A stretch of 32,000 nt of DNA from Nitrosospira multiformis ATCC 25196 (GTDB taxonomy: Bacteria > Pseudomonadota > Gammaproteobacteria > Burkholderiales > Nitrosomonadaceae). The first letter of the stretch is position 1, and each line of letters opens with the position of its first letter. The stretch covers positions 240,001 to 272,000 of the forward strand of contig NC_007614.1 in the NCBI RefSeq assembly GCF_000196355.1, in the 5' to 3' direction. The notes under the pieces were generated by a model. That model made no database searches, was not told the DNA's origin, and was given only the letters and a program-made list of their open reading frames with translations. Made by a program: the position numbers and the translations under genes. Below are positions 965 to 26,223 of this stretch, in pieces.

Positions 965-1265
965 GAAGCTGGCCAGACAGTCGCTGCCTGTCCTCGGTGA
1001 CGAGTGCAGGGAGAGGAAAGTCCGGGCTCCGCAGAGCAGGATGCCGGTTAACGGCCGGCCGCCGTAAGGTGAGGAACAGGGCCACAGAGACGAGCGTATT
1101 AAGTTACGGTGAAACGCGGTAACCTCCATCCGGAGCAAGACCAAATAGGCAGGCGATGATGCTGCTCGCTGAGCCTGCGGGTAGGTTGCTTGAGCGTGCG
1201 GGTGACTGCACGCCTAGAGGAATGACTGTCCTTGACAGAACCCGGCTTATCGGCCAGCTTCTTTC
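965..1265 (+). ncRNA. rnpB: RNase P RNA (bacterial type A, M1 RNA)
   Basis: 5' GAAGCTGGCCAGACAGTCGC pairs with 3' GGCCAGCTTC to form P1. Universally conserved P4 strands are present: GAGGAAAGTCCGGGCTCC and ACAGAACCCGGCTTATCGG. Also has CCGGAGCAAGACCAAATAGG and GGTAGGTTGCTTGAG, close to E. coli M1 RNA. The ends are approximate to a few nt. Confidence 0.92.
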
Positions 1266-1502: not shown

Positions 1503-2099
1503 ATGAAGAAAATTTTTGAGTGGGCTGCCGGGCTGGCAGGGGCTATGATGATAGCTCTCGTCGTTGTTCCCGCCCATGCACAACTCATGCTTGCGCATGA
1601 AGGCCACCATTCAGGCGATTGTGCCATCAAATCGGGCGCCTTTCCTGTATCCTTCAGCGCCTATGAGAAGCCCAAGGGCGAGCTTCCGCCCACTCATGCC
1701 TATTGCGACCATGTTCCCGAAACCGGGGAGTTGTATTTCACCGTGGACCTGACCGATCCCGAATCCCGCGAAATTCCCATCGCGATGCGCCTGGTAATGG
1801 AAGGGCATGGAGAGGGGGGGCATGAAATCATGTCGATACCTGCCAAACCCTACCCTTCCGGAAGCATTACGTTTACCGTAAACCTGGAAGAACTGGGGCA
1901 GTACGCGTTGCTGCTGGAAACCGAGAAGGACGGTAAGATGACTCCCGCGGTACGCATTCCCGTACATGTAGGGGGAGGTGGCGGCCATGATGGACACGGC
2001 GGGGGTATCGGCATGACAGAGATTGCACTGATAGTGGGTGTGGCTGGCGTAGCAGCCTTCTTTCTGCTGCGTCGGCGGACGAGCGCCAAAATGTCCTGA
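1503..2099 (+). CDS. secreted His/Gly-rich protein with C-terminal transmembrane anchor (candidate periplasmic metal-binding protein)
   Basis: ATG at 1503 is preceded by GGAGA; the ORF-track start at 1395 is unlikely. Signal peptide MKKIFEWAAGLAGAMMIALVVVPAHA. His clusters HEGHHSGD, EGHGEGGHE and GGGGGHDGHGGG. C-terminal hydrophobic helix IALIVGVAGVAAFFLL followed by RRR. Confidence 0.6.
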   Translation: MKKIFEWAAGLAGAMMIALVVVPAHAQLMLAHEGHHSGDCAIKSGAFPVSFSAYEKPKGELPPTHAYCDHVPETGELYFTVDLTDPESREIPIAMRLVMEGHGEGGHEIMSIPAKPYPSGSITFTVNLEELGQYALLLETEKDGKMTPAVRIPVHVGGGGGHDGHGGGIGMTEIALIVGVAGVAAFFLLRRRTSAKMS

Positions 2100-2378
2100 G
2101 CAGGCGGAATCAGCGAGCGCTATTCAATCCACGATCCGCGAAATTAAAAGCACACTTCCGCGGATCCTCCTGAAAGAGCGGCGACGGGTTTTTAAGGGAT
2201 TATCTATTTTCCCTTCTTGACCTCGGCGCCGTTTTTTTATTCATCATCGGGCCTATTCCGGATCTTACAGCCTACTCGGGTGATTAACGTGGGGGGCGGT
2301 GTAAGGTAGGATAGTAAGGACGAGATCTTCCTTTCAGGCCGGCTTTCAATGCGAATGCGCCTGAAAAACGAAAGGTCC

Positions 2379-3566
2379 TTACTGGAAAATAGTCTCGCGC
2401 AACATGGCGAAAGTTTTGCCGACATGATCCATCTGCTCGCTGGTATGAACGGCACTTACACTGCAACGCACCAGCGAATTGCCCTCCGGCGTTGCGGGCG
2501 GCAAGACCAGATTCACATAGATACCCTGTTCAAGCAGTCCTTTCCACAGTGCCAGCGCCTGTTGCGGCGTTTCAAGGATTGTTGCGATAACAGGGCTGGG
2601 TTCCGGTCCCAGGCGATAACCCAGTTCCTTGAGTTGCGAGTAGAGCTGGTGCACATTCTTCCAGAGCTGTCGGCGTAATTCGACCCCCTCCCTCAGCAGC
2701 TTGAGAGCTGCACGGGTTGAGGCGATGGTGGCAGGCGTAGGCGACGCAGTGAAAATATAAGGCCGGCTCACATAGCGCAACTGATCCAGTTGCGGATGAT
2801 TGCTCACACAGTAGCCGCCGATCCCCCCCAAGCTTTTACTGAAGGTGCCTGTGATGAAGTCTACTCTATCGAGGAGGCCTGTTTCTTCTACCAGACCCTG
2901 TCCGGTCTCACCCAGTACCCCCAGGGAATGCGCTTCATCAAGAAGAAGCGTGCTGTTATACGCATCCTTTACCTTGACGATATCCGCCAGCGGCGCGCGG
3001 TCTCCCAGCATACTGTAGATGCCCTCGGCAATGATGAGGGTGGAGCGCGATCTTTCTCCCAGGCGGCGGAGACGCTTCTCCAGATCGGCCGCATCGTTGT
3101 GTCTGAAGCGGATTATTTCGGCGCCGCTCAAACGGCAACCATCGTAGATGCTTGCGTGGGAATCGCCATCGATAAGAACGATGTCGCCGGCCCCGGCCAG
3201 CCCTGAGATGGTTGCAAGGTTGGCCTGATATCCCGTGGTAAATACGATGCAGGACCCGCATTGATAAAACTCGGCAAACTCGCGCTCGAGGGCACGATGG
3301 CCGCTGTAACTGCCATTGGCCATGCGCGAGCCGGTTGTACCCGTGCCTTCATTGTGAATCGCTTCCTGCGCTGCGTCCCGGCATTCCTGAGCGAAGGTAA
3401 GGCCCAGATAATTATTTGTTCCCAGAAACAATATCCGGTGATCCCCGATCCTGGCCTCGGTCGAGGAATAAACTTCTTCTATGGGTGTTCCAAAAACCTC
3501 AACACCCTCAGGCAGCAGGGCTTTTCTCGCTGCCGCCACGGCATCCAGTTTATCTAGCAAACTCAT
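2379..3566 (-). CDS. spt: alpha-oxoamine synthase family PLP enzyme, serine palmitoyltransferase-like
   Basis: 395 aa. The PLP-lysine context GTFSKSLGGIGGY matches the GTFSKS signature I recall for bacterial SPT, as opposed to the T(F/L)GKA-type context of BioF/KBL. Other fold-type-I AOS motifs are present (LDEAHSLGVLG, TTGYQANL). The start overlaps the upstream ACP stop by 4 nt (ATGA). Confidence 0.75.
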   Translation of the reverse strand: MSLLDKLDAVAAARKALLPEGVEVFGTPIEEVYSSTEARIGDHRILFLGTNNYLGLTFAQECRDAAQEAIHNEGTGTTGSRMANGSYSGHRALEREFAEFYQCGSCIVFTTGYQANLATISGLAGAGDIVLIDGDSHASIYDGCRLSGAEIIRFRHNDAADLEKRLRRLGERSRSTLIIAEGIYSMLGDRAPLADIVKVKDAYNSTLLLDEAHSLGVLGETGQGLVEETGLLDRVDFITGTFSKSLGGIGGYCVSNHPQLDQLRYVSRPYIFTASPTPATIASTRAALKLLREGVELRRQLWKNVHQLYSQLKELGYRLGPEPSPVIATILETPQQALALWKGLLEQGIYVNLVLPPATPEGNSLVRCSVSAVHTSEQMDHVGKTFAMLRETIFQ

Positions 3567-3817
3567 TGTTTTTGAGACTTTATTCGGTAGATCAAGTTGG
3601 CGAGCTCATGAACGGTCTGTACATCCGCAAGAGCATTGATCGGTACGGAAATGTCGAACTCGTCCTCGATTTCCATGATCAGGTTCAGCAATTTTACAGA
3701 ATCGATTGCCAGCTCGTTAATAAGATCGCTCTGCGGTGTGATTTCCACCTCTGGACCGGCAAGCTGCTCAAGGTGATGGCAAAGTTTTTGCAGAACGTCG
3801 TTATAATCGTTCAACAT
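3563..3817 (-). CDS. acyl carrier protein (dedicated, pathway-specific)
   Basis: 84 aa, acidic. Phosphopantetheine attachment motif LAIDSVKLLNLIMEIEDEF. Sits between the SDR and Spt-like genes and is translationally coupled to the latter. Confidence 0.8.
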   Translation of the reverse strand: MLNDYNDVLQKLCHHLEQLAGPEVEITPQSDLINELAIDSVKLLNLIMEIEDEFDISVPINALADVQTVHELANLIYRIKSQKQ

Positions 3818-3846
3818 CTGGATTCAAAATGATTCGGTGATTGAAA

Positions 3847-4761
3847 TTAGACTGCTTGTGGTAAAGCGTCGCGAAGGTGGATGCAGGGTCGCCACCCTGG
3901 GAGTGCCCGAGTCAGGGGATCAATATCACAAACCCAGTCGGGGTGGCGCAATTCTCTCACTTTTCCCGGGGTCAGCATAGGTGAATAGCTTAGCATTCTG
4001 GCAGACCACAAGTTGATATTTGCGATCAATGAAACCAGTGGTGCGGGGAAAAAGACGCAGCGTACAGGGCGTTTCCACACTTCCTGTGCAATAGTGGCTA
4101 CCGCCTGGCTGTCGTAACCTCCCGGCATACCGTCATCAAGCTCGTAGGTACCTTGTACAGGCACCGCAGTCGAAAGCCAGCAGGTGATTGCCGCTACCAG
4201 ATCGGCGACATGCAGTAGTCCAAACCGCATCTCAGGTTGCCCCACCATTGGCAAGATACCGCGGCGCGTTATCCTGAACAGCGGGCTCATTTCCTTATCT
4301 CCGGGACCATAAACAGCCGTTGGACGAAAAATGGCACAGGCCATACCCGCCGAGCGCTCGTCTATCAGACGTTCAGCCATGTGCTTGCTCGTGGCGTACC
4401 AGGAAAGCTCGGGTTGCCGGGCGGCCAGAGAAGAAACCAGCAGGAAACGTGGAGGCGGGTTTTGTTCCAGAGAAGCCTGCATCAGGTTGGCCGTGCCTTC
4501 CACATTGGTACGGACAAAGCTCTCGAGAGAGCTTCCCCGAACCTGACCTGCGCAATGCACAACGGCCGAGACACCTGTTACGAGTTTTCGCAATGCATCG
4601 CGGTCATGTAAATCGCCTTCTATCCATTGCGTGGACTCGTCATCGACGCGCGCACGTCTTGTCAGAGCCCTGACTTTCCATCCTTCCTTTATCAGGGACT
4701 GCAGCAGAGCATTTCCGATAAAGCCAGTGGCGCCGGTAACGGCAACCCAGGACTCCGACAT
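3847..4761 (-). CDS. NAD(P)-dependent epimerase/dehydratase-family SDR, candidate 3-ketosphinganine/ceramide reductase (CerR-like)
   Basis: 304 aa. Rossmann motif VTGATGFIGNAL at the N-terminus and catalytic YxxxK (YATSK). The start is 7 nt after the FAAL stop, with GGGG as SD. Confidence 0.7.
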   Translation of the reverse strand: MSESWVAVTGATGFIGNALLQSLIKEGWKVRALTRRARVDDESTQWIEGDLHDRDALRKLVTGVSAVVHCAGQVRGSSLESFVRTNVEGTANLMQASLEQNPPPRFLLVSSLAARQPELSWYATSKHMAERLIDERSAGMACAIFRPTAVYGPGDKEMSPLFRITRRGILPMVGQPEMRFGLLHVADLVAAITCWLSTAVPVQGTYELDDGMPGGYDSQAVATIAQEVWKRPVRCVFFPAPLVSLIANINLWSARMLSYSPMLTPGKVRELRHPDWVCDIDPLTRALPGWRPCIHLRDALPQAV

Positions 4762-4768
4762 ACCCCGA

Positions 4769-6628
4769 TTATTTGTCCCCGGATTCGGCAGACAACTGGT
4801 CTGTCATCTGCGTTCGCTGGATAAAGCCCTGGCGGGCCGCAAAACGGGACAGTTTTCCAGAGGAAGTACGCGGCAGGGTGTGCGGTGGAACCAGTTCCAC
4901 CAGACAATTCACGCCAAACGCCATGTAGACCAGACGTTGCAGACGGCTGGTAAGGGACTGGCGATCCGTTATCGAGGTAAGTCGGCATTCGATGACCAGG
5001 ACAATGGTCGTGACGTCATTGGCGTCAGTAATGCCGAAGGCGGACGCTTCGCGCGTTCTCACTTCAGGTTGCTGTTCGGCAAGCTCCTCGATATCCTGCG
5101 CGCGGATGTTACGCCCATTGACGATGATTACATCGGTGCGGCGCCCGGTGATGTAAAGATCCCCTTCGAAGAGGAACCCCAGATCACCGGTATCCAGCCA
5201 GTTTCCGGGTTTGAGTGTTTTGCCGGTATCTTCCGGATTGTTGAAATAACCTGTCATGATACTGCTGCCCTGCACGAGTACGCTGCCTACTCGCAAATCC
5301 GGGAGTTGCTGGCCGGCCTCGTCGATCACTTTGACGATATGTCCCGGCAAGGCGCGGCCGCAATTGACAAATTCACTATACTTCCGGCCTTCCACCTGTA
5401 ACCGTACCGCCATTTTCCTGTCAACGAGGGTTGCCGCGTCGACGCGCAAACTCTGAAAACCTTGGCCAACTTCGGAGAAGGTAACGGCGAGCGTCGATTC
5501 AGCCAGCCCGTAGCAGGGGAGGAATGCGCGCGCGTCAAAACCGGCAGGCGCAAATTTTTCCGCAAAATTCCTCAAAGTGTCCGGACGGATCATTTCCGCG
5601 CCGACTCCCGCTGCACGCCAACTGCTGAGGTCAAGATCTTCCAAGTCGGAATCGCGCACGCGAAGCGTGCAGAGCTTGAGTCCAAAAGGTTGGCTGAATG
5701 CGACGGTAGCGCGATTTCTGCTGATCAGCCGCAGCCATTGCAGCGGCCTGATTGCAAAATCACGGGTAGCCAGATAATCAACGGAAACTTGCGCCACCAT
5801 GGGGGCCATTACCATGCCAACCAAGCCCATGTCATGATAAAACGGCAACCAGGATGCGCAGCGGTCTCCTGCCCGGATATTCAGACCGTGACGGACAATG
5901 CCCTGAAGGTTGCTCATTAGTGCACCTTCGGTAATTACTACTCCACGGGGCATGCGCGTGCTTCCCGAAGTAAATTGCAGATATGCGATTTCATCCGGAC
6001 TATTTGGCGCAAGCTCGGTGATCGACGCCGGCAGTTCCCCGAGTTGCTCCGGCGTTCCCACCCAACGCAGATATTGGGACCCCTCGGCCGCTTCTTTCAA
6101 GAAATCGACATAGTCGGCGTTCGCCAGAGCGGCGCTTGCCTGGCCCGCTTCCAGCATTCCGCGCAACTGCCGAACATAAACCGCATGGCTGCCGAGGTTG
6201 ACAGGAACAGGCATTGCATAAGGTACCAGCCCTGCATAGCGGCATGCATAAAAGATCTCCACGAACTCCGGCGTCGTGTCGGCAATAATCGCAACACGGT
6301 CTCCTCTCGCCAACCCAAGCCGCAGCAACTGCCGCGCCGCTGTTTGGGCATTTTGCCTTAATGCCTGATAGGGAAGAACAGAGCGGAGATTACCCTTGGC
6401 ATCGTAAAAGTTATATCCGGCTGTACCTGCCGCCGCATACTCGAGCGCAGCGATCAAGGTGTCGAAGTCGGCTAATCTCTGAGCTTGAGTGTTGTAGGTG
6501 GGTGTGGGGATCGCAGCTGCCGGCTGCTCGCTTGATAATTGAGGGTTAAACGCTTGCGTCAGCGGAGCGTTCAACTTTGCTATTGTTGAACTCAAGGTCT
6601 TCCCCTCCAAGTTAATCGTACTAGTCAT
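4769..6628 (-). CDS. fatty acyl-AMP ligase / acyl-ACP synthetase (AMP-dependent synthetase family)
   Basis: Adenylation motifs LQFTSGSTRMPRGVVITEGALMSNL, WLDTGDLGF and LPRTSSGKLSR. First gene of the four-gene minus-strand operon. Start is taken at the ATG at 6628; the ORF track extends to a TTG at 6661. Confidence 0.8.
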   Translation of the reverse strand: MTSTINLEGKTLSSTIAKLNAPLTQAFNPQLSSEQPAAAIPTPTYNTQAQRLADFDTLIAALEYAAAGTAGYNFYDAKGNLRSVLPYQALRQNAQTAARQLLRLGLARGDRVAIIADTTPEFVEIFYACRYAGLVPYAMPVPVNLGSHAVYVRQLRGMLEAGQASAALANADYVDFLKEAAEGSQYLRWVGTPEQLGELPASITELAPNSPDEIAYLQFTSGSTRMPRGVVITEGALMSNLQGIVRHGLNIRAGDRCASWLPFYHDMGLVGMVMAPMVAQVSVDYLATRDFAIRPLQWLRLISRNRATVAFSQPFGLKLCTLRVRDSDLEDLDLSSWRAAGVGAEMIRPDTLRNFAEKFAPAGFDARAFLPCYGLAESTLAVTFSEVGQGFQSLRVDAATLVDRKMAVRLQVEGRKYSEFVNCGRALPGHIVKVIDEAGQQLPDLRVGSVLVQGSSIMTGYFNNPEDTGKTLKPGNWLDTGDLGFLFEGDLYITGRRTDVIIVNGRNIRAQDIEELAEQQPEVRTREASAFGITDANDVTTIVLVIECRLTSITDRQSLTSRLQRLVYMAFGVNCLVELVPPHTLPRTSSGKLSRFAARQGFIQRTQMTDQLSAESGDK

Positions 6629-7288
6629 CTTTTTATAATATAAAGGATTCCAGTCGGGCAATCGTGTTTTTGGCCATCATCCGCTGTCGCGTCGTCCGAG
6701 TTCGAGATGCTGCTTGAAAATATCGGCCTTACCTGGCTCCCGGTAAAGGCAGTAGCTCCAAAAACAAAAAATAAATGCGTTAATCTGTGAAATCAACGAA
6801 CCTTCTTATACTCAGCTCTTATTATCGTAATAGAACAGCTTTATCATGCACTTCCGGCATTACCGGAGCATGCTCCTTCACGCGCAAGGGGCTGTCTCTA
6901 ACACGCGGTCCGCTTTCGATTATTTACAGAATAGGCGATAAGCTCCATTCTGTACGAGTTGGCAGACGATATAAAGAGGTTTTGGAGAATGGAAGGGAAA
7001 TGTGTGTCTTTTTTGCAACACTTGCCGGAATCGGACCCTTCAGCTTCGCGTTAGATCTGATCTCAATCTCTTTCGCAGCCGGACGGCATTTTACAGGATC
7101 CAGCTATCGATGGATCAACTCTTCTTTTATTTTCGAGGCGGATTATTGCAAGCCCCGGCGCGGTCTTGCGGAATCACTATACGCAAGGAATCTATACGGA
7201 ATCCTGGGAAAATTCCTCGCCTGGAATGGGTCTTCCCGCTGATTTCAAGTGCAAAGCTGGATTTACGCTCGCTCAGTAGCGGGTCGAC

Positions 7289-7633
7289 TCATCCTTCGAG
7301 CCATGTCTTTGCTGCGGCATAATCCCGGAATACCCGTATGTCGGCATCGACAAATAGATTGGATACCCAGGCCGCCCAGGCGCGCCACTGGTTTTCAGTA
7401 ATTATCGCGATGCGGTTGAATTCGCTGCCGTGTTCTCGCACGAATTTGATGTCCTCCCAAGCGACATCGATGGTGTAGCTCAGCATATCCCGCCAATCGA
7501 ACAATACATTCACCTTGCCCTCGCGGCCAGCCTTGCGGAGGACCTTGTCCTCGAATTCTTGGTAATCGGCCAAGGTGAATTCGCCGAAAACAGCGATACT
7601 GATCAGATTTTCCGTTTCCTCAATGGTTATCAT
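7289..7633 (-). CDS. STAS/SpoIIAA-like domain protein (DUF3478-type)
   Basis: 114 aa. Pattern FGEFTLADYQEFEDKV...VNVLFDWRDM...AWEDIKF...FNRIAIITENQW is typical of the small SpoIIAA-like STAS family. No partner kinase or phosphatase is adjacent. Confidence 0.55.
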   Translation of the reverse strand: MITIEETENLISIAVFGEFTLADYQEFEDKVLRKAGREGKVNVLFDWRDMLSYTIDVAWEDIKFVREHGSEFNRIAIITENQWRAWAAWVSNLFVDADIRVFRDYAAAKTWLEG

Positions 7634-7735: not shown

Positions 7736-8833
7736 TCAGATGTGCGGTTCAATTTCTCGCCGCAGAAACTTGTGGAAGTGCACCATGCCATCTTCCATCG
7801 GCGATTGGTACGGTCCGACCTCGCTCACGCCTTGTTTGTACAGCGCACGGCGCCCTTCCGTCATCAGCCTGCAGATTTCATCATCCTCGGCAGCGGTTTC
7901 GCGATAGGCGGCCTGTTCTGCTTCAATGAATTCACGCTCAAACAAAGCGATATCTTCAGGATAATAGAACTCCACCACATTGGTGCAACGCTCTGTTCCG
8001 GTAGGAAGCACCGTGCTGACGACCAATACATGGGGATACCATTCCATCATGACATTGGGATAATACAGCATCCAGATTGCGCCATGCCTCGGTATTTCGC
8101 CCGCTGTCTGCAGCAACAGTTGCTCGTGCCATTTTGCATAGACGGGCGTTCCCGGACGGGTCAGGGCGTTATTGATCCCCACAGTCTGCACGTTGTACCA
8201 CTCCCCGAACTCCCATTCCAGCGCAGCCGTGTCAACAAAGTTGCCCAGGCCCGGATGGTATGGCTCGACGTGGTAGTCCTCCAGATAAACTTCTATGAAG
8301 GTTTTCCAGTTGCAGGCGTATTCATCTATCTGGAGGCGTTCCAGCACATGGCCCGAGAAGTCGAAATTCTTCAGGACTTGCAAGTTGCCCAGATCGCGGG
8401 CAACATTCCGCCTGCCTTGAAACAGGAGTCCGTTCCAGTTCTGCAAAGGTGAATTGGAAAGATTGAGGCAAGGGTTTTCGGGGAAATGGGGCGCCCCGAG
8501 CAACGTGCCCTTCAAGTCATACGTCCAGCGATGCACCGGGCAAACGATGTTTCTGGTGTTGCCACTCCCTTTGAGCAGCAGTGACTGCCTGTGGCGGCAG
8601 ACGTTGGACAGCAGCTCGATACCATCCTTATTACGCACCAGCATTTTCGCGTTATCCATCCATTCGGGCACATAATAGTCACCAATGTTGGGCACCATGA
8701 TCTCATGACCGACATAGCCCGGTCCCTGGTCGAAAAGAATGCGTTTTTCCAGTTCAAGGATTTGAGAGTCGAGATACCAGTCAACCGGCAGTTGCGTTGG
8801 AGCCAATTGGCAAACATCAATCAGATCGACCAT
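7736..8833 (-). CDS. Rieske [2Fe-2S] non-haem-iron oxygenase, alpha-subunit family
   Basis: 365 aa. Rieske motif CRHRQSLL...x17...CPVHRWTY. Mononuclear iron motif EDYHVEPYHPG. Overall resembles the CntA/GbcA/choline-monooxygenase-type clade. No reductase or beta subunit is adjacent. Confidence 0.8.
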   Translation of the reverse strand: MVDLIDVCQLAPTQLPVDWYLDSQILELEKRILFDQGPGYVGHEIMVPNIGDYYVPEWMDNAKMLVRNKDGIELLSNVCRHRQSLLLKGSGNTRNIVCPVHRWTYDLKGTLLGAPHFPENPCLNLSNSPLQNWNGLLFQGRRNVARDLGNLQVLKNFDFSGHVLERLQIDEYACNWKTFIEVYLEDYHVEPYHPGLGNFVDTAALEWEFGEWYNVQTVGINNALTRPGTPVYAKWHEQLLLQTAGEIPRHGAIWMLYYPNVMMEWYPHVLVVSTVLPTGTERCTNVVEFYYPEDIALFEREFIEAEQAAYRETAAEDDEICRLMTEGRRALYKQGVSEVGPYQSPMEDGMVHFHKFLRREIEPHI

Positions 8834-13128: not shown

Positions 13129-13205
13129 CGGGGTGTAGCGTAGCCTGGTAGCGCGCCTGGTTTGGGACCAGGATGTCGGGAGTTCAAATCTCTCCACCCC
13201 GACCA
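13129..13205 (+). tRNA. tRNA-Pro (anticodon TGG)
   Basis: Cloverleaf folded by eye. Acceptor CGGGGTG/CACCCCG, anticodon arm CCTGG-TTTGGGA-CCAGG, T-loop GTTCAAATC, encoded CCA. Confidence 0.93.
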
Positions 13206-13240
13206 TTCATGCTAATTCGAGGCGAAATCCGATTTGAGTG

Positions 13241-13317
13241 GTGCCCGTAGCTCAACCGGATAGAGCACCAGCCTTCTAAGCTGGGGGTTACAGGTTCGAT
13301 TCCTGTCGGGCACGCCA
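13241..13317 (+). tRNA. tRNA-Arg (anticodon TCT)
   Basis: Acceptor GTGCCCG/CGGGCAC, anticodon arm CCAGC-CTTCTAA-GCTGG, T-loop GGTTCGATTCC, encoded CCA. Confidence 0.93.
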
Positions 13318-13376
13318 TAAGCTATCTCGTCGTAGCCCTGCGGCGGTTTCGGAATTGTATTGCGATTTTCTCGGAT

Positions 13377-13452
13377 GGTGGCTGTAGCTCAGCGGTAGAG
13401 TCCCGGATTGTGATTCCGGTTGTCGTGGGTTCGATCCCCATCAGCCACCCCA
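13377..13452 (+). tRNA. tRNA-His (anticodon GTG)
   Basis: Has the extra 5' G(-1). Near-identical to E. coli tRNA-His (GGTGGCT.TAGCTCAG...GGATTGTGATTCC...GGTTCGA.TCCCAT.AGCCACCCCA). Confidence 0.95.
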
Positions 13453-14442: not shown

Positions 14443-15246
14443 ATGGGTTTCTTCCCTCCGTTCACTGATGATCATCTTCAGCGTTACTTTCGCATCCTTC
14501 AGGAAGGGACAGCAGTTCGCCGCCATTTTGACCTATTGAAGTGGCTGCAAGGGGAAGTGCAGCATTATTTGCCCCACGAGATCCTGCTTGCGGCGTGGGG
14601 CGATTTCGGTTCGAACAATGTCCAATACGACATCATTTCTCCGCTGCCGGGTCTCAGGACGGCGCAATTGCAGTTGGCCCGGCTTTCTCCATTGCTGCGC
14701 GTATCCTACAACCGGTGGATTGAGGTGGGACGCATTCCTTGTGTATCCAGGGTTTGCGAGGCCCAGCTGGACGTGTCGGGGATTCTCCAGGGGGATGGGG
14801 CGGCGCACTGCCCTTTCGGAAGAGCGTTACGCAACATGCGTTCGTCACTGTTTCATGGTATCAGCGACGAGCGCGGGCACCATGATTGCCTTTACGTCGT
14901 CTTCAGTTCAAAGGATAAGCTTGACGATTCAACATTAATTGCAATGGAAATTCTGCTGCCCTACCTTGATACGGCTTTGCGCCGCGTGACACCCCTGCCG
15001 CAGCACTCCTGCCGGCCCTCCCTCCTCGCAGATGCACCGGAGTATGATCTCCATGGCCTGAGCGAGCGAGAGGTCGAAATAATGACCTGGGTAAGAAAGG
15101 GCAAAACAAATGCCGAAATCGGCAGTATCCTGCGCATCAGTTCTTACACTGTCAAAAACCACCTGCACCAGATATTCCGGAAACTCGATGTCTACAATCG
15201 GGTGCAAGCCATTTCCAAAATTGAACAGCGTGTTGGTCATGGCTGA
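14443..15246 (+). CDS. epsA: XrtB/PEP-CTERM-associated LuxR-family transcriptional regulator EpsA
   Basis: 267 aa. C-terminal LuxR/FixJ HTH LSEREVEIMTWVRKGKTNAEIGSILRISSYTVKNHLHQIFRKLDV. About 190-aa N-terminal domain with no motif I recognise. First gene of the eps locus. Its stop overlaps the next start (ATGGCTGA). Confidence 0.8.
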   Translation: MGFFPPFTDDHLQRYFRILQEGTAVRRHFDLLKWLQGEVQHYLPHEILLAAWGDFGSNNVQYDIISPLPGLRTAQLQLARLSPLLRVSYNRWIEVGRIPCVSRVCEAQLDVSGILQGDGAAHCPFGRALRNMRSSLFHGISDERGHHDCLYVVFSSKDKLDDSTLIAMEILLPYLDTALRRVTPLPQHSCRPSLLADAPEYDLHGLSEREVEIMTWVRKGKTNAEIGSILRISSYTVKNHLHQIFRKLDVYNRVQAISKIEQRVGHG

Positions 15247-16657
15247 GGCAAATCCTACATTTTCCGCTTCAACCGTTACCGCCCGCCAGGTGAAAGGCCC
15301 GCTGGCTAATAATATGCTGAGCGCGGTCGAGTCGGTACTTGATCCGGCAGTACTGACACTTTCGTTATGGCTGATAAGCACCAGTTTTGAAGGCGAATTG
15401 CTCCCGCCTTATTTGATCCTGTCGGTGATCGTATTCTCTATCTCCTTTCCAGGTGCGTCACATCTCCGGTCATCCGTCAAGGTTCTCATCTTCGACGTGC
15501 TCTACACCTGGTTCTGGATGGCTTTGCTACTGTTTTTTCTCGGTTTTGCGACCGGCTATATCGCCCAATTCTCCAGCCAGGTGCTCATTACATGGCTATG
15601 GGCTGCCCCCCTAAGTCAAATCGGCGTCCATCTGCTGTTTCGTATCGCCGCACCCTATCTTCTCATGCTCCAGGGTCCGCCACAGCGCGCCATCATCGTC
15701 GGCATGAACGAGCAGGGGGTCGCCCTCGCCCGTCGTATTCATGAGACGCGTTATTCGAATATGGAACTGTCCGGTTTTTTTGATGATCGGAATGAGAGCC
15801 GACTTTCGCATGCGCGGAATAATCCCTTGCTCGGAAGGCTTCGAGAGCTTCCCGAATTTGTCAAGGAGCATCGCATCCAGTTCATTTATCTGTCGTTGCC
15901 GATGGCTTCCCAGCCACGCATCCTGCATGTTCTCGAAGAACTGAAAGATACGACGGCCTCCATCTATTTCGTACCCGACATGTTTATTACGGATCTTATT
16001 CAGGCGCGAAGTGGCACAGTGTGTGGTACGCCGGTTATCGCTGTCTGCGAATCGCCTTTTACGGGCTCCAATGGGATGGTCAAGCGCGCAAGCGACATTA
16101 TCCTCTCCCTGCTTATACTGCTACTCATATCACCACTTCTGCTGCTCATCGCGGTTGCCATCCGGCTGGATTCGCCAGGGCCCATTATTTTCAAGCAGCG
16201 ACGCTATGGGCTGGACGGAGAGGAAATCCTTGTTTACAAGTTTAGATCGATGAGCGTCTGCGAAGATGGGAATACCATCCGGCAAGCACAAAGGAATGAT
16301 AACCGCATAACCCGCGTCGGGGCTTTCCTGCGAAGCAATTCCCTGGATGAATTGCCGCAGTTCATCAATGTATTGCAGGGGCGCATGAGCATCGTGGGCC
16401 CCAGGCCTCATGCAGTAGCGCACAACGAGATATATCGCAACCTTATAAAAGGCTACATGATCCGGCACAAGGTAAAGCCGGGAATTACAGGTTGGGCGCA
16501 GGTGAACGGCTACCGTGGGGAGACGCGGACCCTGGACAAGATGCAGGCGCGTATCGATCATGATCTCGATTATTTACGCAACTGGTCGTTGCGGCTCGAT
16601 TTGCACATCATCTGCAAGACTATCCTGGTAGTACTGAAAGATCGGGCTGCATATTAA
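15239..16657 (+). CDS. epsB: undecaprenyl-phosphate hexose-1-phosphate transferase (priming polyprenyl glycosylphosphotransferase, EpsB/WcaJ-like)
   Basis: N-terminal TM helices. C-terminal bacterial sugar-transferase domain [43 protein letters not shown]...[21 protein letters not shown]. Start is at the ATG at 15239, not 15110, which lies inside epsA. Confidence 0.88.
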
Positions 16658-16784
16658 ATGCTCTCTCATGCGCCGTAAAGCCTCCCAGCAGTCATTAACA
16701 CGAATAACACTTCCGCTATCCTCTCGTTAATCAAGGTGATACTCTTGCAGTCTCCTTTGTATCGGAAAGATAGAGATATCTAAA

Positions 16785-18104
16785 ATGAAAAAAAGATTGC
16801 CGTTAAATCTTTTCCTTGATTGCCGTCGCTGGATTGCAGTAATTGCCTCTTTGGGTTTTTTTTTGTTGGACATGCAACAGGCAATGGCTCAACAGACGAC
16901 GCCCCATCCCCCCAGGATGGTGCCCGACAAGACTTTCAGCGTGACCGCGGGCACCACATTTACGTATGACAGCAATGTCTTTCGTTTGTCTCCCCTCGTT
17001 AATCCGATTGCATTAACCGGCCAACCGCGGAGAGCCGATCAGATCATCATCACGTCTGCAACTCTTGGGTTTAATAAAAGATATTCCATGCAACGCTTCG
17101 AGGTAACAGGCACCCTGGTTGATAATCGTTACATGAATTTTGATTTCCTTGATTTTCTCGGAAAAAATTACAACGCGGCCTGGCACTGGTATGTAACCCC
17201 TTACCTTCATGGCAGATTGACTAGCCGCCACAGTGAGGCGCTTAACAATTTTGCAAACCTCTCCGGTTTTCTGAATGGCACGAATCGCAACCTACGCACC
17301 CTTGACAACTATCATTTCGATGGAGTTCTTGAGCTTAACCGGGCGTGGCATCTCATTGGAGGGCTTGACCATAGCATCATGAAGAACAGCCGCTTAACCA
17401 TTCAGGATTTCAACAACAAGGTTACCTCGGTGGAGGGGGGAATACGCTATGTCTCCAGTTCCGGCGGCTCGCTCACTTACAGAGTGAGAAGCGGGCGCGG
17501 GGAGTTCATCAATCGACCCGCGCCTCTTCCCGAGTTTCTCTTTGATACCCGTTTCGATGAAATGGAGCACGATCTCCGCATGCATTGGCCCGTCACGGTC
17601 AAGACCTCCATAGAAGGACGAATCGGCTACCTCGACCGCAAACATGCTCATTTTTCCCAGCGGGACTTCGCCGGCTTCGTGGGCGATCTCAATATAAGTT
17701 GGATGCCGACCAGCAAAGTGCAAGTGATGGGAGGATGGTCCAGACAATTATCCAATTATCAGACTGCACCATTTGCCTTTCAGCATTCTATCTTTGAGCG
17801 TTTCTCGAGTAGTTACATTGCCACCAATCGCTTCTCGATTGCCCCGACCTGGCAAATCACGGAAAAGACTGCATTGAGGGTGCGCTATGATTATGTTCTC
17901 AGTGATTTTCATGGCGCTGTTGTTCCTCTTCCTACAGAGAGCCGGAGCGATCAGATGCATTCCGGTCTGGTTGCTCTCGATTGGCGGCCACTTAACACAC
18001 TCTACTTAAGCGCCGCTTTTCATCGGGATCATCGCAGTTCCAACCATCGCGGCTTTGGTTTTGACAGCACCGCAGGAAGTGTGTCGGCCACGCTTAATTT
18101 TTGA
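16785..18104 (+). CDS. epsL: outer-membrane beta-barrel protein of the XrtB polysaccharide locus (EpsL-like)
   Basis: 439 aa. Has a signal peptide and an alternating amphipathic beta-strand pattern throughout. The C-terminus ...SATLNF ends in Phe, the OMP signature. Its position between the priming transferase and epsD matches EpsL-type loci. Confidence 0.7.
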   Translation: MKKRLPLNLFLDCRRWIAVIASLGFFLLDMQQAMAQQTTPHPPRMVPDKTFSVTAGTTFTYDSNVFRLSPLVNPIALTGQPRRADQIIITSATLGFNKRYSMQRFEVTGTLVDNRYMNFDFLDFLGKNYNAAWHWYVTPYLHGRLTSRHSEALNNFANLSGFLNGTNRNLRTLDNYHFDGVLELNRAWHLIGGLDHSIMKNSRLTIQDFNNKVTSVEGGIRYVSSSGGSLTYRVRSGRGEFINRPAPLPEFLFDTRFDEMEHDLRMHWPVTVKTSIEGRIGYLDRKHAHFSQRDFAGFVGDLNISWMPTSKVQVMGGWSRQLSNYQTAPFAFQHSIFERFSSSYIATNRFSIAPTWQITEKTALRVRYDYVLSDFHGAVVPLPTESRSDQMHSGLVALDWRPLNTLYLSAAFHRDHRSSNHRGFGFDSTAGSVSATLNF

Positions 18105-18366
18105 TGATCAAGCAATCCATGTTCGCTATTATTACTATTGAGAGGAGTTGGGAAAAGGTGATTTACAATGGGAGTCTGGTAGTACGAACGGACTATTGCA
18201 GCCAAATACCACCTCGGCTACCGTGGTTGTCAGCTACCTGAATTACACGCCGGTATTGACGAGAATCTGTACTGGCAGGAAGAGTGAACTGCTTGAAAAA
18301 AAGGATTGTTTTAAATTATTGTCCTATTCTTTAACCGAAAAGCCAATGGCTCAACAAATTGATCAT

Positions 18367-19338
18367 ATGAAAATGAATCGTCAGAAATTCATAACGCCAC
18401 TATTACTTCCGTTGCTTGTTTTAGGACTCGCAGCCTGCGACAAAAAAGAATCCTCACAACCGGCCAGCCAGGTAGCGGCCAAAGTAAATTCCGGCGAAAT
18501 ATCCGTGCATCAACTCAATTATGTTCTGGCCAGAGCCACGCGCAATAGCGCAAATTCTCCGGAAAATGCATCCAGGATTCGCCGGGAAGTTCTTGATCGC
18601 CTGGTCGATCAGGAACTTGCGGTAGAACAGGCTATCAATAAAAAACTTGACCGTTCGCCGGAAGTTCTCATGGCCCTGGATAATGCACGTAGAGAGATTC
18701 TTGCACGTGCCTATCTCGAGCAGATCACTGCGGCTACTCCAAAGCCAACCGTCGAAGAAGCAAAAACCTACTATTCGGAACATCCACAGCTTTTCGCGGA
18801 ACGGCGCATTTATAACATACAGGAAATTGTGCTTCCTTCATCAGCCGGCGTCGCGGACGAGCTGCGGGAAATGCTCGACTCAGGCAAACCCATGGAAGAC
18901 ATTGCGAAGTGGCTCAAAGGCAAGGACATAAAGTTTGCCGCTGGCAGCGCAACACGTTCCGCCGAGCAGATTCCCCTTGAGATCCTGCCCAAGATACATC
19001 CGCTGAAACCCGGCCAGGGCTTGCTCATCCAGGGTCCGCAATCGATTACCCTCATGCGGATCGCTGCCGCACAAACGGCGCCGATTACCGAAGCAGCAGC
19101 GTTGCCGCGCATCCAGCAGTTTCTTGGAAATCAGCGCGCGGCGGAAGCCGCCCGGGGGGAAATAAAGGCTCTCAAGGCAAAAGCCAATATCACCTACATG
19201 GGCGAATTCGCTGTTCCGGATAAAAATGCATCCGGGGGAGAAAATTCCGTTTCGTCAGTCGCCAGTGCTAGGGATTCAAGTTCGCCCCAAGCCGATAATC
19301 CCGGCCTTGAAAAGGGTGCGGCGGGTTTGTTGAGATAA
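18367..19338 (+). CDS. epsD: peptidyl-prolyl cis-trans isomerase, EpsD family (SurA/parvulin-like lipoprotein)
   Basis: Lipoprotein signal MKMNRQKFITPLLLPLLVLGLAAC. SurA-like N-terminal chaperone region followed by a degenerate parvulin-like domain. Start is placed at 18367; the ORF track extends 73 codons upstream to a TTG, which is unlikely. The exact start is uncertain (18346, 18367 or 18373). Confidence 0.75.
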   Translation: MKMNRQKFITPLLLPLLVLGLAACDKKESSQPASQVAAKVNSGEISVHQLNYVLARATRNSANSPENASRIRREVLDRLVDQELAVEQAINKKLDRSPEVLMALDNARREILARAYLEQITAATPKPTVEEAKTYYSEHPQLFAERRIYNIQEIVLPSSAGVADELREMLDSGKPMEDIAKWLKGKDIKFAAGSATRSAEQIPLEILPKIHPLKPGQGLLIQGPQSITLMRIAAAQTAPITEAAALPRIQQFLGNQRAAEAARGEIKALKAKANITYMGEFAVPDKNASGGENSVSSVASARDSSSPQADNPGLEKGAAGLLR

Positions 19339-19366
19339 CACAATTATCAAGAGGAAGTTCGACAAT

Positions 19367-20161
19367 ATGTTCCAAATTTTGGTTCGTACCTTGATTCTTT
19401 TATCCATGTTGTTTTCGGTTAAGGTTTTTGCCGAGAGTCCTGACTACCCGCTGGGTCCGGGTGATATCCTGCGCATTCAGGTTTTTCAAAATCCTGACCT
19501 TACTACTGAAACCCGGGTTTCCGAAAGTGGTTCCATCACCTTTCCGCTGGTTGGCGCTCTCGAGGTCGGAGGACTTTCTGTTGCTTCCGCCGAAAATAAA
19601 CTTGCAGCCGCCCTTAAAAAGGGAGGGTTCATAAAGCAACCCCAAGTGACCATTGTCCTCCTGCAGATGAGGGGTAGTCAGGTGAGTGTGCTGGGGCAGG
19701 TCAATCGACCGGGACGCTTTCCACTGGAAACCCTGAGCAGGGTGAGTGACATGCTGGCTGCCGCGGGAGGTACCACTCCGCTCGGCGACGATTTTGCAAT
19801 CGTTACCGGTACACGCAACGGACAGGCCTTCCGAAAGGTGATCGATATTCCCGCACTCTATCTGGAAGAGAGATCCGATGAAGATATCATCCTTGCTGGA
19901 GGAGACACGATTTATGTTCACCGGGCTCCCGTTTTCTATATTTACGGCGAGGCCCAGCGGCCTGGTGCTTATCGTATCGAGCGAGGCATGACCGTAATGC
20001 AGGCTCTGGCTCAGGGCGGGGGGCCGACTCCGCGTGGTAGCGAATGGTGGTTGCGCCTTCATCGCAGAAACGCGGATGGGGTCGTGGAGAAGCTTTCGCC
20101 CGACATGACCGATGCTGTCCAGCCTAATGACATAATTTATGTGCGAGAAAGCATTTTTTAA
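19367..20161 (+). CDS. epsE: polysaccharide export protein EpsE (Wza/Poly_export family, periplasmic)
   Basis: 264 aa. Signal peptide. Poly_export motif YPLGPGDILRIQVFQNPDLT...GSITFPLVGALEVGGLS, plus SLBB-type repeats. GAGGA is the SD. Confidence 0.88.
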   Translation: MFQILVRTLILLSMLFSVKVFAESPDYPLGPGDILRIQVFQNPDLTTETRVSESGSITFPLVGALEVGGLSVASAENKLAAALKKGGFIKQPQVTIVLLQMRGSQVSVLGQVNRPGRFPLETLSRVSDMLAAAGGTTPLGDDFAIVTGTRNGQAFRKVIDIPALYLEERSDEDIILAGGDTIYVHRAPVFYIYGEAQRPGAYRIERGMTVMQALAQGGGPTPRGSEWWLRLHRRNADGVVEKLSPDMTDAVQPNDIIYVRESIF

Positions 20162-20175
20162 GAGTCTTCCGGACT

Positions 20176-21567
20176 ATGACACTTCAACAATTTTTACTCA
20201 TCCTTCGTGCCCGGTATAAGGTAGTCCTCTATATTTTATTGTTTACGGTAATCGCTACCCTTGTAGTCAGTTTGCTATTGCCTAAACAATATACCGCTGG
20301 TACAGCTGTAGTGGTTGACATTAAATCGCCCGATCCGGTAGCGGGGATGGTATTGCCCGGTTTGACGTCACCTACTTACATGGCTACCCAGGTCGACGTG
20401 ATCAATAGCGACCGTGTAGCAGAGCGTGTCGTAAAAATGCTGCGCCTGGATGAAAGCCCTGTCGTAAAGGAGCAGTGGGAGGAGGACGGAAGCAAGGGTG
20501 AGCTTACCACCTGGCTGGCCAACTTGCTGAAAAGAAAGCTTGATGTCAAACCTTCCCGGGAAAGCAACGTAATCTACATTGAGTATACCGGGAATGATCC
20601 CAATTTTGCCGCCGCTGTTGCAAACGCTTTCGCTCAAGCTTATATCGACGTGAATCTGGATTTGAAGGTCGCCCCTGCCCGCCAGTATGCCCACTGGTTC
20701 AAAGGACAAACTGCCGCTGCCAGGGATGAGCTAGAGCGAGCCAAAGCTGCACTTTCCGCGTATCAACAGGAAACCGGTCTCGTCGCTACCGAGGAACGTC
20801 TGGATTACGAAGTAGCCAAGCTCAATGAACTTTCAAGTCAACTTACTCTTATCCAAGCCCAGACATCGGACAGTAGCAGTAAACGGAAAGCCGCTGAAGA
20901 TCCGGACACTTTAGCTGAGGTCATACAGAGCCCGCTAATAAATAGCCTCAAATCGGATATTGCGCGCCTCGACGCAAAGCTTCAGGAAAGCAGCGCCTAT
21001 CTGGGACCAAATCATCCACAAACCAAACGCACTCAATCTGAACTCGCGTCTCTCAGAGGCAAGCTATCCGCTGAAACACGCAAGATTCATAGCAGTATCG
21101 GCACTTCATATGAAGTGGGGAAGCGAAAGGAGCAAGAGTTGCTCGAGGCGATGGAAAGGCAGAAGGGGCGCGTGTTGGAGCTTAACAGACAGCGTGATCA
21201 GATGAGTGTTCTTCAAGGGGATGTGGAAGCTGCGCAACGCAATTTCGAAGGCATAAGCCAGCGTAGTGCCCTCACCCGTCTGGAAAGCCTTTCCGTTCAG
21301 ACTAACATAACCCCGTTGAACCCTGCTTCAGTCCCGAGTGAGCCGTCAAGCCCTAAATTGCTGCTCAATACATTGATCTCCATCTTTCTAGGTACGCTGT
21401 TGGGTGTGAGCGCCGCTCTGGTTATGGAATTGATGAATCGACGCGTGCGTTCTGTAGAGGACATCGTGGAAGCCATAGAGATTCCGGTGCTGGCGGTAAT
21501 GTCCGGCCCGTCTCGCAACAAGCTTTCGAGTCGTCTTCCCAAATTACCCAACCCGGAAACCAGTTAA
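20176..21567 (+). CDS. epsF: chain-length determinant protein EpsF (Wzz/GumC-type polysaccharide co-polymerase)
   Basis: 463 aa. N-terminal TM helix (VVLYILLFTVIATLVVSLLL), a long coiled-coil periplasmic region, and a C-terminal TM helix (LLLNTLISIFLGTLLGVSAALVM). Confidence 0.88.
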   Translation: MTLQQFLLILRARYKVVLYILLFTVIATLVVSLLLPKQYTAGTAVVVDIKSPDPVAGMVLPGLTSPTYMATQVDVINSDRVAERVVKMLRLDESPVVKEQWEEDGSKGELTTWLANLLKRKLDVKPSRESNVIYIEYTGNDPNFAAAVANAFAQAYIDVNLDLKVAPARQYAHWFKGQTAAARDELERAKAALSAYQQETGLVATEERLDYEVAKLNELSSQLTLIQAQTSDSSSKRKAAEDPDTLAEVIQSPLINSLKSDIARLDAKLQESSAYLGPNHPQTKRTQSELASLRGKLSAETRKIHSSIGTSYEVGKRKEQELLEAMERQKGRVLELNRQRDQMSVLQGDVEAAQRNFEGISQRSALTRLESLSVQTNITPLNPASVPSEPSSPKLLLNTLISIFLGTLLGVSAALVMELMNRRVRSVEDIVEAIEIPVLAVMSGPSRNKLSSRLPKLPNPETS

Positions 21568-21587
21568 TACTCAAACGGAGCTACATC

Positions 21588-22517
21588 ATGAATCCCGTAA
21601 GCGCCAGTTTGCCTGCCATCAAGCGGAGTCAGAATTCCAATTCCCGCGAGTCGTTCTTTGCTGGCCGAACTCAAATCATTGGAAATAGCAGTTCGATCGG
21701 AGCTATTCTCGTCAATGCGGGAAGGCTATCCGAGGAGAATGTGACCCGCATACTGGAAGCGCAAGTACAGCAGCAAAACCACTTTGGTGAAGCGGCCATA
21801 TGCCTCGGCTTGCTCACGGAAGACGATGTGCGCTTTGCTCTTTCGCGCCAGTTTAACAATCTCTATCTGCCAGCAGGGGACAGCAGCCTCAGTCATCATT
21901 TAATTGCGGCTTACAAACCGTTCAGTCCTGTCGTCGAACACCTGCGAAGCCTACGCAGCCAGCTCATGCTGCGCTGGTTCGAGCCGGATACTGACCGGAA
22001 CGTGCTTGCCATTGTCAGCCCAGGGCTGGGAGAAGGTCGAAGCTTCATAGCTGCCAATCTTGCCATCGTTTTTTCGCAGCTTGGCAAAAGTACATTGCTC
22101 ATCGATGCAAATCTTCGGGCGCCCCGGCAGCAGGAATTCTTTAAAGTGAATACAGGTGGGGGCTTATCCAGCTACCTTGCAGGCCGTGCTGGTTTGGAGA
22201 GCATTGTCAGAATTCCTTCATTGCTTGGACTTTCTGTCCTGCCCGCGGGTGCAGTACCGCCAAATCCGCAAGAACTTATCGGTCGACCCGTTTTCGCGGA
22301 TTTGCTGCAATCGGTTGGCTGCGAGTTTGATGTCGTTATCGTGGATACCCCCTCAGCAAGCGAATACGGGGAAGCGCAAATCATCGCAACCGAGGCCTCT
22401 GCTGCCTTGATTGTCCTTCGAAAGAATCATACCTCTCTATCACGCACCGTGGATCTTGCGCGACGTTTCCAGCAGACGGGCGCTGCGGTAGTAGGTTCTG
22501 TGCTGAATGATTTTTGA
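21588..22517 (+). CDS. epsG: EpsG, BY-kinase-like P-loop protein (chain-length regulator partner) with an MshEN/T2SSE_N-like N-terminal domain and atypical catalytic motifs
   Basis: 309 aa. Core IVSPGLGEGRSFIAANLAIVFSQLGKSTLLIDANLRAP...DVVIVDTPS aligns to the Walker A, A-prime and B motifs of bacterial tyrosine kinases, but with K->R and DxD->DxN. The N-terminal 110 aa carry a tandem repeat similar to GspE/MshE N-domains. Confidence 0.85.
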   Translation: MNPVSASLPAIKRSQNSNSRESFFAGRTQIIGNSSSIGAILVNAGRLSEENVTRILEAQVQQQNHFGEAAICLGLLTEDDVRFALSRQFNNLYLPAGDSSLSHHLIAAYKPFSPVVEHLRSLRSQLMLRWFEPDTDRNVLAIVSPGLGEGRSFIAANLAIVFSQLGKSTLLIDANLRAPRQQEFFKVNTGGGLSSYLAGRAGLESIVRIPSLLGLSVLPAGAVPPNPQELIGRPVFADLLQSVGCEFDVVIVDTPSASEYGEAQIIATEASAALIVLRKNHTSLSRTVDLARRFQQTGAAVVGSVLNDF

Positions 22518-22693
22518 ACAATAAAGGCGGTATGGATTTAGGGTAATACCCCATGGATGGTTCGCGTGATCGAAATTCCACGAACATCAGGCGCTAAACG
22601 AAAGGGATGGCATATATCTTATATTTTCTTCATTTTCTTGATTCGCTTGGGAAAACAGAGAGGAGGGCTATTGGCCCAGTTGGGAAGGCCGTA

Positions 22694-24667: not shown

Positions 24668-24727
24668 TGACGCAGGGGTTAGCAGCTTTTTTCTGGTCAT
24701 CTTCCGGGGCTGTTTGAAACAGCGGAT

Positions 24728-26191: not shown

Positions 26192-26223
26192 AGCATGCGC
26201 CCCCGCCTACAAAATTTAACCGT

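Follow-up and report, generated by a model that had tools for sequence, protein, structure and literature searches.

An aasR-cerR-acpR-spt operon in Nitrosospira multiformis: the probable first half of a split proteobacterial ceramide pathway

The window analyzed here is a 32,000-nucleotide stretch of Nitrosospira multiformis ATCC 25196 (contig NC_007614.1, positions 240,001 to 272,000 of the forward strand), and the system in question is a compact set of four minus-strand genes encoded near its beginning. These genes, aasR-cerR-acpR-spt, appear to form one co-directional transcription unit that represents the first half of the proteobacterial ceramide pathway; we put the probability of this explanation as a whole at about 0.85. 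By analogy with characterised orthologues, the most likely product is (dihydro)ceramide, which is probably further processed to phosphosphingolipids. The four genes are the following.

4769..6628, minus strand: aasR-type fatty acyl-AMP ligase (FAAL)/acyl-acyl carrier protein (acyl-ACP) synthetase, 619 amino acids (aa) from the ATG at 6628
3847..4761, minus strand: cerR/epi-type extended short-chain dehydrogenase/reductase (SDR) of the NAD-dependent epimerase/dehydratase family, putative keto-reductase of the pathway, 304 aa
3563..3817, minus strand: acpR-type dedicated acyl carrier protein (ACP), 84 aa, pI 4.3, with Ser40 in a DSV motif
2379..3566, minus strand: spt, serine palmitoyltransferase (SPT), 395 aa, with Lys244 as the pyridoxal 5'-phosphate (PLP) lysine

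All four genes are found where the first-pass annotation, made from the letters and a list of open reading frames (ORFs), had placed them, and the ORF list gives the same tight spacing: 7 nt between the FAAL and SDR genes, 29 nt between the SDR and ACP genes, and a 4-nt overlap (ATGA) between the ACP stop and the spt start. The domain calls made at that stage likewise hold in Pfam, with AMP-binding detected in the FAAL, Epimerase/NAD-binding in the SDR, PP-binding in the ACP and Aminotran_1_2 in the alpha-oxoamine synthase (AOS) encoded by spt. The aasR ORF spans 4769-6661 on the minus strand in the ORF list and would encode 630 aa if the TTG at 6661 were taken as the start; the ATG at 6628, which yields the 619-aa protein, is the start picked by independent gene callers on identical (metagenomic) contigs. 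The gene next downstream of spt (1503-2099, plus strand) is convergent, and the nearest minus-strand gene on the upstream side stops about 660 nt short of the FAAL start, so that the four genes constitute a discrete unit. Rfam detects no RNA element inside or adjoining the operon.

The arrangement is widely conserved. A scan of one genome per species yielded 383 relatives. The closest Spt proteins are those of N. multiformis strains Nl7, Nl12 and Nl18 (97-98% identity), followed by other Nitrosospira (86-88%) and by the Nitrosomonas loci compared, N. eutropha not being among them (74-78%); more distant relatives are found in gamma-, delta- and alphaproteobacteria. Among the 71 informative loci, that is, those with enough upstream sequence, FAAL, SDR, ACP and Spt are colinear on one strand in 64, from beta-, gamma-, alpha- and deltaproteobacteria, and the remaining 7 retain ACP-Spt, so that the adjacency of these two genes extends to 71 of 71. 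Recurrence on such a scale, with order and strand preserved, means that the arrangement is not due to chance. The flanking genes, about 13 kb including folE2, dxs, ispA, xseB, pyrE and those for a Rieske oxygenase and an LEA_2 protein, are syntenic with the N. multiformis strains but not with Nitrosomonas.

The family of the AOS was assigned from the scores of curated hidden Markov models and from the ranking of PDB matches by score, and the two agree with the initial assignment of this protein to the Spt type as opposed to BioF, KBL, ALAS or CqsA. It reaches 598 bits with the NCBIfam equivalog model NF047599 (SerpalmtaseBetaP, "serine palmitoyltransferase, BetaP"), whose cut-off is 500, and stays below the cut-offs of the sister families (BioF, 334 bits against 426; KBL, 315 against 460; ALAS, 230 against 339; CqsA, 221 against 428). 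Although this betaproteobacterial Spt model is passed, the alphaproteobacterial one is not (436 bits, cut-off 670). Among solved structures, the highest scores belong to the SPTs of Sphingomonas wittichii (406 bits), S. paucimobilis (380 bits) and, from the Bacteroidetes, S. multivorum (274 bits), whereas KBL (225 bits), cysteate-C-fatty acyltransferase (28eh, 190 bits), ALAS (180 bits), BioF (175 bits) and CqsA (113 bits) follow at a distance. All alpha-oxoamine synthases share one fold, and the BioF and KBL models reach significant E-values, which could suggest a housekeeping paralogue of the BioF/KBL type whose neighbours serve biotin, threonine or polyketide-like metabolism. This identity is refuted by the NCBIfam scores, with Spt over its curated cut-off and BioF, KBL, ALAS and CqsA all under theirs, by the PDB ranking, and by the linkage to a dedicated ACP, FAAL and SDR kept in the same 64 of 71 loci; its probability is practically nil.

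The catalytic residues lead to the same assignment. The GTFSKS context of the PLP lysine that had been read from the translation lies at residues 240-245, with Lys244 as the PLP-binding residue. Residues His137, Asp210, His213, Lys244 and Arg367 correspond to H159, D231, H234, K265 and R390 of the S. paucimobilis enzyme (SpSPT) and are the same in all of the 86 homologues compared. According to PMC9386255, acyl-AcpR is the favoured substrate of the SPTs from Caulobacter, E. coli BL21 and S. wittichii, and L-[14C]serine is incorporated by all three. Because of the equivalog-level match, the five invariant catalytic residues and the E. coli orthologue assayed with L-serine, L-serine is by far the likeliest amino-acid substrate of the Nitrosospira enzyme, as judged from its sequence and its orthologues.

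The other three proteins conform to their expected families. The FAAL scores 876 bits against the NCBIfam fatty acyl-AMP ligase model NF006624 (cut-off 600), and its best solved relative is the E. coli FAAL 3PBK (539 bits, a near-gapless alignment over residues 49-602). The latter is encoded by the FAAL gene in the sphingolipid cluster of E. coli (243 of 245 sampled residues match), to which the Nitrosospira protein is 46% identical. It thus qualifies as AasR: it belongs to the FAAL subfamily and not to the acyl-CoA ligases, and its orthologue is a cluster-encoded FAAL. In Caulobacter, AasR (CC_1165) acylates only AcpR (CC_1163) (Padilla-Gomez et al., PMC9386255). The ACP contains a PP-binding domain (Pfam, 6e-12) with the DSV motif at residues 39-41, has a calculated pI of 4.33 and is 46% identical to the ACP of the E. 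coli cluster. It falls under every NCBIfam cut-off for housekeeping AcpP (e.g., TIGR00517, 39 bits against 70) and accordingly has the features of AcpR, namely, small size, acidity, a PP-binding domain with a DSx serine and distinctness from the housekeeping carrier.

The SDR (Pfam Epimerase, 1.5e-29) contains the motifs TGATGFIG (residues 9-16) and YATSK (residues 122-126) and is 48% identical to the SDR of the E. coli cluster; both are encoded between the FAAL and the ACP. There is no curated NCBIfam model for CerR, and the best NCBIfam match of the protein is HpnA, far below the cut-off (76 bits against 368). It has no close solved relative, and NDUFA9 is among its top PDB matches; Caulobacter CerR has been reported as NDUFA9-homologous (PMC11087976). 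An extended SDR with the TGxxGxxG and YxxxK motifs, similar to NDUFA9 and encoded between aasR and acpR, is what is expected of CerR/Epi.

The remaining enzyme of the five-gene ceramide pathway is the bacterial ceramide synthase (bCerS), an N-acyltransferase. The first-pass annotation had seen none in the window and had pointed to the rest of the genome. The former is confirmed by tblastn with E. coli YghO, which detects no bCerS-type acyltransferase in the 32 kb, and by NCBIfam scans of 20 other window ORFs, with no bCerS-type match. Tblastn with the same query also finds no bCerS within 10 kb of spt in any of the fetched Nitrosospira and Nitrosomonas loci. The missing ACYLTRANSFERASE is a neighbour of the module in other bacteria, where a YghO homologue divergently adjoins it in many gammaproteobacterial and some betaproteobacterial loci (tblastn). 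A protein search with the bCerS copy of locus L027 retrieved proteins named N-acetyltransferase, with 65-73% identity, from N. multiformis, N. briensis, N. lacus, Nitrosospira spp., Nitrosovibrio and Nitrosomonas. The 90% cluster of the N. multiformis protein (P0080) includes ATCC 25196 and several other strains, so that the fifth gene of the pathway is present elsewhere in the genome at the level of the species. This protein is about 49% identical to E. coli YghO and matches 0 NCBIfam families; since NCBIfam has no bCerS model, its identity rests on homology to YghO and on the conserved context, which is as follows.

L087:10001-17540, second region of N. multiformis, genes in this order: bCerS; NTP_transf_3 protein; LptF2-like protein; LptG2-like protein; CDP-OH_P_transf protein; DAGK_cat protein (diacylglycerol/ceramide-kinase type); 326-aa protein

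A block with the same genes in the same order lies directly upstream of FAAL-SDR-ACP-Spt in Pseudomonas luteola, Azotobacter vinelandii and several metagenome-assembled genomes. In Azotobacter and Pseudomonas the block is contiguous with the module, so that Nitrosospira has a split sphingolipid cluster occupying at least two regions, with the half in the window predicted to make and reduce the long-chain base. By domain type, the genes of the second region fit Caulobacter CC_1152, CC_1155/1156 (LptG2/F2), CC_1159 (the CDP-alcohol transferase-like CpgA) and CC_1160 (the ceramide kinase CpgB); the head-group genes of Caulobacter are CC_1152 and CC_1155-1161 (PMC11324152).

These findings bear on the three products that had been left open from the window alone: a sphingoid base, a ceramide completed by a distal gene, and a different long-chain amino-alcohol lipid. 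The distal bCerS selects the second of these and disfavours the other two. A module that on its own makes a free sphingoid base or some other non-ceramide lipid, in a genome devoid of an N-acyltransferase, would be consistent with the lack of bCerS in the window and within 10 kb of spt in the Nitrosospira and Nitrosomonas loci, and with the fact that only 32 kb are in view. It is, however, very unlikely given the bCerS homologues in N. multiformis ATCC 25196, other strains and many Nitrosospira, Nitrosovibrio and Nitrosomonas genomes, the physical fusion of the bCerS block to the module in other genera, and the published assignment of the N. eutropha aca gene as Neut_1100 (PMC9386255).

Additional genes flank the bCerS block. 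Divergent from bCerS, a FabF-like ketoacyl synthase gene is followed by one for a non-housekeeping ACP (L087:7690-9608). On the other side of the block, there are genes for a NeuB-like protein, a CTP_transf_3/HAD protein resembling CMP-sugar synthetases and a 470-aa protein without an assigned family (L087:17497-21118). Homologues of the NeuB-like and 470-aa proteins are encoded within 10 kb of spt in deltaproteobacterial loci (L038, L040, L044, L055, L063 and L066). The ketoacyl synthase/ACP pair and the NeuB-like and 470-aa genes may reflect extra acyl-chain or head-group chemistry. A separate ketoacyl synthase gene near spt in five Nitrosomonas loci, which resembled the ketoacyl synthase/ACP pair beside bCerS in N. 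multiformis, was considered as a functional link and rejected: according to Pfam, the genes in one of these loci (L017) are the housekeeping series fabH-fabD-fabG-acpP-fabF-mltG.

The characterised orthologues suggest the following sequence of reactions. AasR would adenylate a free long-chain fatty acid and load it on the phosphopantetheine arm of AcpR (Ser40). The PLP-dependent Spt (Lys244) would then condense acyl-AcpR with L-serine, yielding 3-oxo-sphinganine (3-KDS), CO2 and holo-AcpR. The distal YghO/bCerS-type N-acyltransferase is predicted to add the amide-linked acyl chain, and the SDR (CerR) to reduce the 3-keto group, producing dihydroceramide. In Caulobacter, dihydroceramide requires all five genes (PMC9386255), and deletion of cerR leads to the accumulation of oxidised ceramide (PMC11087976). 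This accumulation and the periplasmic site reported for CerR in Caulobacter are why we favour acylation before reduction. The second region encodes ceramide-kinase-type, CDP-alcohol-transferase-type and nucleotidyltransferase proteins along with LptF2/LptG2, and for this reason the ceramide is probably converted to anionic phosphosphingolipids of the ceramide-phosphoglycerate type that would be exported to the outer membrane.

Several observations weigh against this reconstruction. One concerns the amino-acid substrate. Residue 355 of the Nitrosospira Spt, which is equivalent to SpSPT Arg378 and located just ahead of the PPATP loop, is Leu, and the Arg reportedly contacts the carboxylate of serine. 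However, across the ACP-dependent Spt clade this position is Leu, Met or Phe, with Arg in 0 of 86 sequences and Leu in 60 of 86, including the E. coli enzyme, so that the substitution is a trait of the clade. We therefore reject it as a sign of changed substrate specificity; it may relate to the use of acyl-ACP instead of acyl-CoA. The use of another amino acid (cysteate, glycine or alanine), with a capnine/sulfonolipid-like or 1-deoxy product, could be argued from this Leu and from the general consideration that substrate specificity cannot be proved from sequence. The doubt voiced in the first-pass annotation was overstated, considering that the Spt equivalog cut-off is passed and the catalytic residues are invariant, and that the closest similarity is to SPT (406 bits) and not to cysteate acyltransferase (190 bits). 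The E. coli Spt has this Leu too, and its BL21 orthologue is among the enzymes that take up L-[14C]serine into product (PMC9386255). The sulfonolipid enzymes fall in a Bacteroidetes branch (PMC9304779). A substrate other than serine is accordingly highly improbable, slightly more so than the free sphingoid base.

More weight attaches to the reductase. The N-terminus of the SDR (MSESWVAVTGATGFIG...) opens straight with the Rossmann motif, with no signal peptide visible by eye. By contrast, Caulobacter CerR has been reported as periplasmic, by an export route left unexplained in that work (PMC11087976). The Nitrosospira SDR thus sits awkwardly with its Caulobacter counterpart, and the order of the steps is disputed in the literature. 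In a eukaryote-like order, the Olea-Ozuna/Geiger model, a cytoplasmic SDR would first reduce 3-ketosphinganine to sphinganine, which the distal acyltransferase would N-acylate afterwards. This is the working model in PMC9386255. It is in keeping with the Rossmann motif that begins at residue 9 of a protein with no recognisable export signal, with the requirement for NAD(P)H, a cytoplasmic cofactor, and with the co-transcription of the reductase with the genes that form 3-KDS and not with bCerS. The periplasmic location of CerR and the oxidised ceramide of the cerR deletion in Caulobacter (PMC11087976) argue to the contrary. Because a signal peptide is not apparent in the SDR, whose gene is co-transcribed with those for 3-KDS formation, reduction before acylation is a serious alternative, albeit the less probable one, and acylation followed by reduction remains our preferred order.

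The other points on this side are of a more general kind. The presence of bCerS in the genome to which the window belongs is deduced from N. multiformis sequences at the species level that lie outside the 32-kb window. A scan for promoter and terminator consensus sequences over positions 2000-7400 detected 4 and 6 sites where 3.6 and 5.7 were expected, nothing above the shuffled level; the scan being uninformative, the boundaries of the operon rest on the spacing, the convergent gene downstream and the separate gene upstream. Literature searches found no lipid data for any Nitrosospira or Nitrosomonas.

The rest of the window has the following features. About 1.1 kb past the end of spt, at 965-1265 (plus strand), there is a bacterial RNase P class A RNA (Rfam, 249 bits). 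The convergent gene at 1503-2099 encodes a 198-aa predicted secreted protein, His/Gly-rich and with a C-terminal hydrophobic anchor, which matches no family and whose conservation is limited to Nitrosospira. Upstream of the operon, the minus strand encodes a Rieske-type oxygenase (7736-8833) with weak matches to GbcA and the sterol demethylase SdmA, and, between it and the operon, a 114-aa protein (7289-7633, same strand). The Rieske oxygenase and the 114-aa protein upstream and the 198-aa and LEA_2 proteins downstream were considered as accessory lipid genes and set aside as context because their synteny is confined to Nitrosospira; the Rieske oxygenase and the 114-aa protein are probably unrelated to the lipid pathway.

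Farther along, a cluster of tRNA-Pro(TGG), tRNA-Arg(TCT) and tRNA-His(GTG) genes (13129-13452, plus strand) is located between folE2 and the gene of an exopolysaccharide (EPS) regulator. It is followed by a complete XrtB/PEP-CTERM EPS locus (14443-28838), all above the equivalog cut-offs, that encompasses the epsA regulator, a WcaJ-type priming transferase, epsL, epsD, epsE, epsF, epsG, exosortase B and EpsI type B; after the EPS genes come a MOP flippase, an O-antigen-ligase-like protein and a GT4 glycosyltransferase. The transferase ORF (15110-16657) overlaps epsA by 137 nt, so its true start is probably further downstream. The 772-aa ORF after the EPS locus (29102-31420, plus strand) has no NCBIfam match at E<=1e-3.

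The system itself is already known: it is covered by a curated equivalog model, its genes have been mapped in print in the sister genus, and its orthologues have been characterised. The present analysis adds N. multiformis to the published alpha-, beta- and gammaproteobacteria that possess aasR-cerR-acpR-spt, which is of little import beyond correct annotation, and shows that an ancestral contiguous sphingolipid cluster has been split into at least two regions in Nitrosospira. Ceramides and phosphosphingolipids have apparently never been looked for in ammonia oxidisers, organisms that are environmentally important and whose membrane lipids serve as biomarkers; finding them in a nitrifier would bear out, modestly and as expected, a prediction already published on genomic grounds. 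A bolder proposition, which we regard as rather unlikely, is that Nitrosospira, and ammonia-oxidising Nitrosomonadaceae in general, make outer-membrane phosphosphingolipids with a head group that may differ from that of the Caulobacter lipids CPG/CPG2. A different head group is suspected because the bCerS region has a private ketoacyl synthase/ACP pair as well as NeuB-like and CMP-sugar-synthetase-like genes, the latter with homologues near deltaproteobacterial spt. If this held true, it would provide the first demonstration of a sphingolipid in a nitrifier, with a head group that might be new among bacterial sphingolipids.

Among the known systems, the Bacteroidetes Spt and cysteate acyltransferase, which yield sulfonolipid (capnine), are the most remote from the Nitrosospira module: the AOS fold and the Claisen-type condensation are common to both, but the Bacteroidetes enzymes form a separate subgroup without dedicated ACP or FAAL partners, as reflected in the scores of the S. 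multivorum SPT (274 bits) and the cysteate acyltransferase (190 bits). The SPTs of S. paucimobilis (2JG2) and S. wittichii (2X8U) are the closest solved structures (380-406 bits), and all catalytic residues are kept; they differ in the Arg at position 378, where the clade of the window protein has Leu, and aasR of Sphingomonadaceae lies far from acpR-spt (PMC9386255).

The cluster of E. coli B/BL21(DE3) (ECD_02850-02854; yghO, aasR, epi, acpR, spt) has the same gene order, and its four proteins are 46-54% identical to those of Nitrosospira, the FAAL of which has about 45 extra N-terminal residues. In E. coli, yghO adjoins the module divergently and spt is followed by LptF/G paralogues, whereas in Nitrosospira both are in a separate region. 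Of 5426 complete E. coli genomes, 4068 carry the cluster (yghO and FAAL-SDR-ACP-spt, PGAP-annotated) at >=95% identity (e.g., locus L086, NZ_AP022261.1); K-12-derived strains lack the module and retain only about 1.1 kb of yghO. With Caulobacter crescentus CC_1162-1165/CCNA_01220-01223 (spt, acpR, cerR, aasR), the reference system characterised by genetics and biochemistry, the module shares the four functions and their adjacency as described in PMC9386255, as the first-pass annotation had said; the difference is that bCerS (CC_1154) and all 17 sphingolipid genes of Caulobacter are in one region, unlike the split cluster of Nitrosospira.

The closest counterpart is Nitrosomonas eutropha C91, likewise a member of Nitrosomonadaceae but of another genus, without the chromosomal flanks of Nitrosospira. 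It has the same four genes in the same order (aasR-epi-acpR-spt, Neut_0458-0461), with the N-acyltransferase far off at Neut_1100 (PMC9386255 Fig. 9; PMC11324152 Fig. 7) and the pathway genes spread over several regions: 13 of the 17 Caulobacter sphingolipid genes are found over three regions, and ceramide phosphoglycerates have been predicted (Olea-Ozuna et al. 2024, PMC11324152). The module had initially been presented as lying outside the classical sphingolipid producers; the novelty implied there does not survive, given that the very same cluster of four genes, with the acyltransferase gene at a distance, had already been drawn for this betaproteobacterium. With Neut_0458-0461 and Neut_1100 already mapped, the layout in the window is the published layout of Nitrosomonadaceae.

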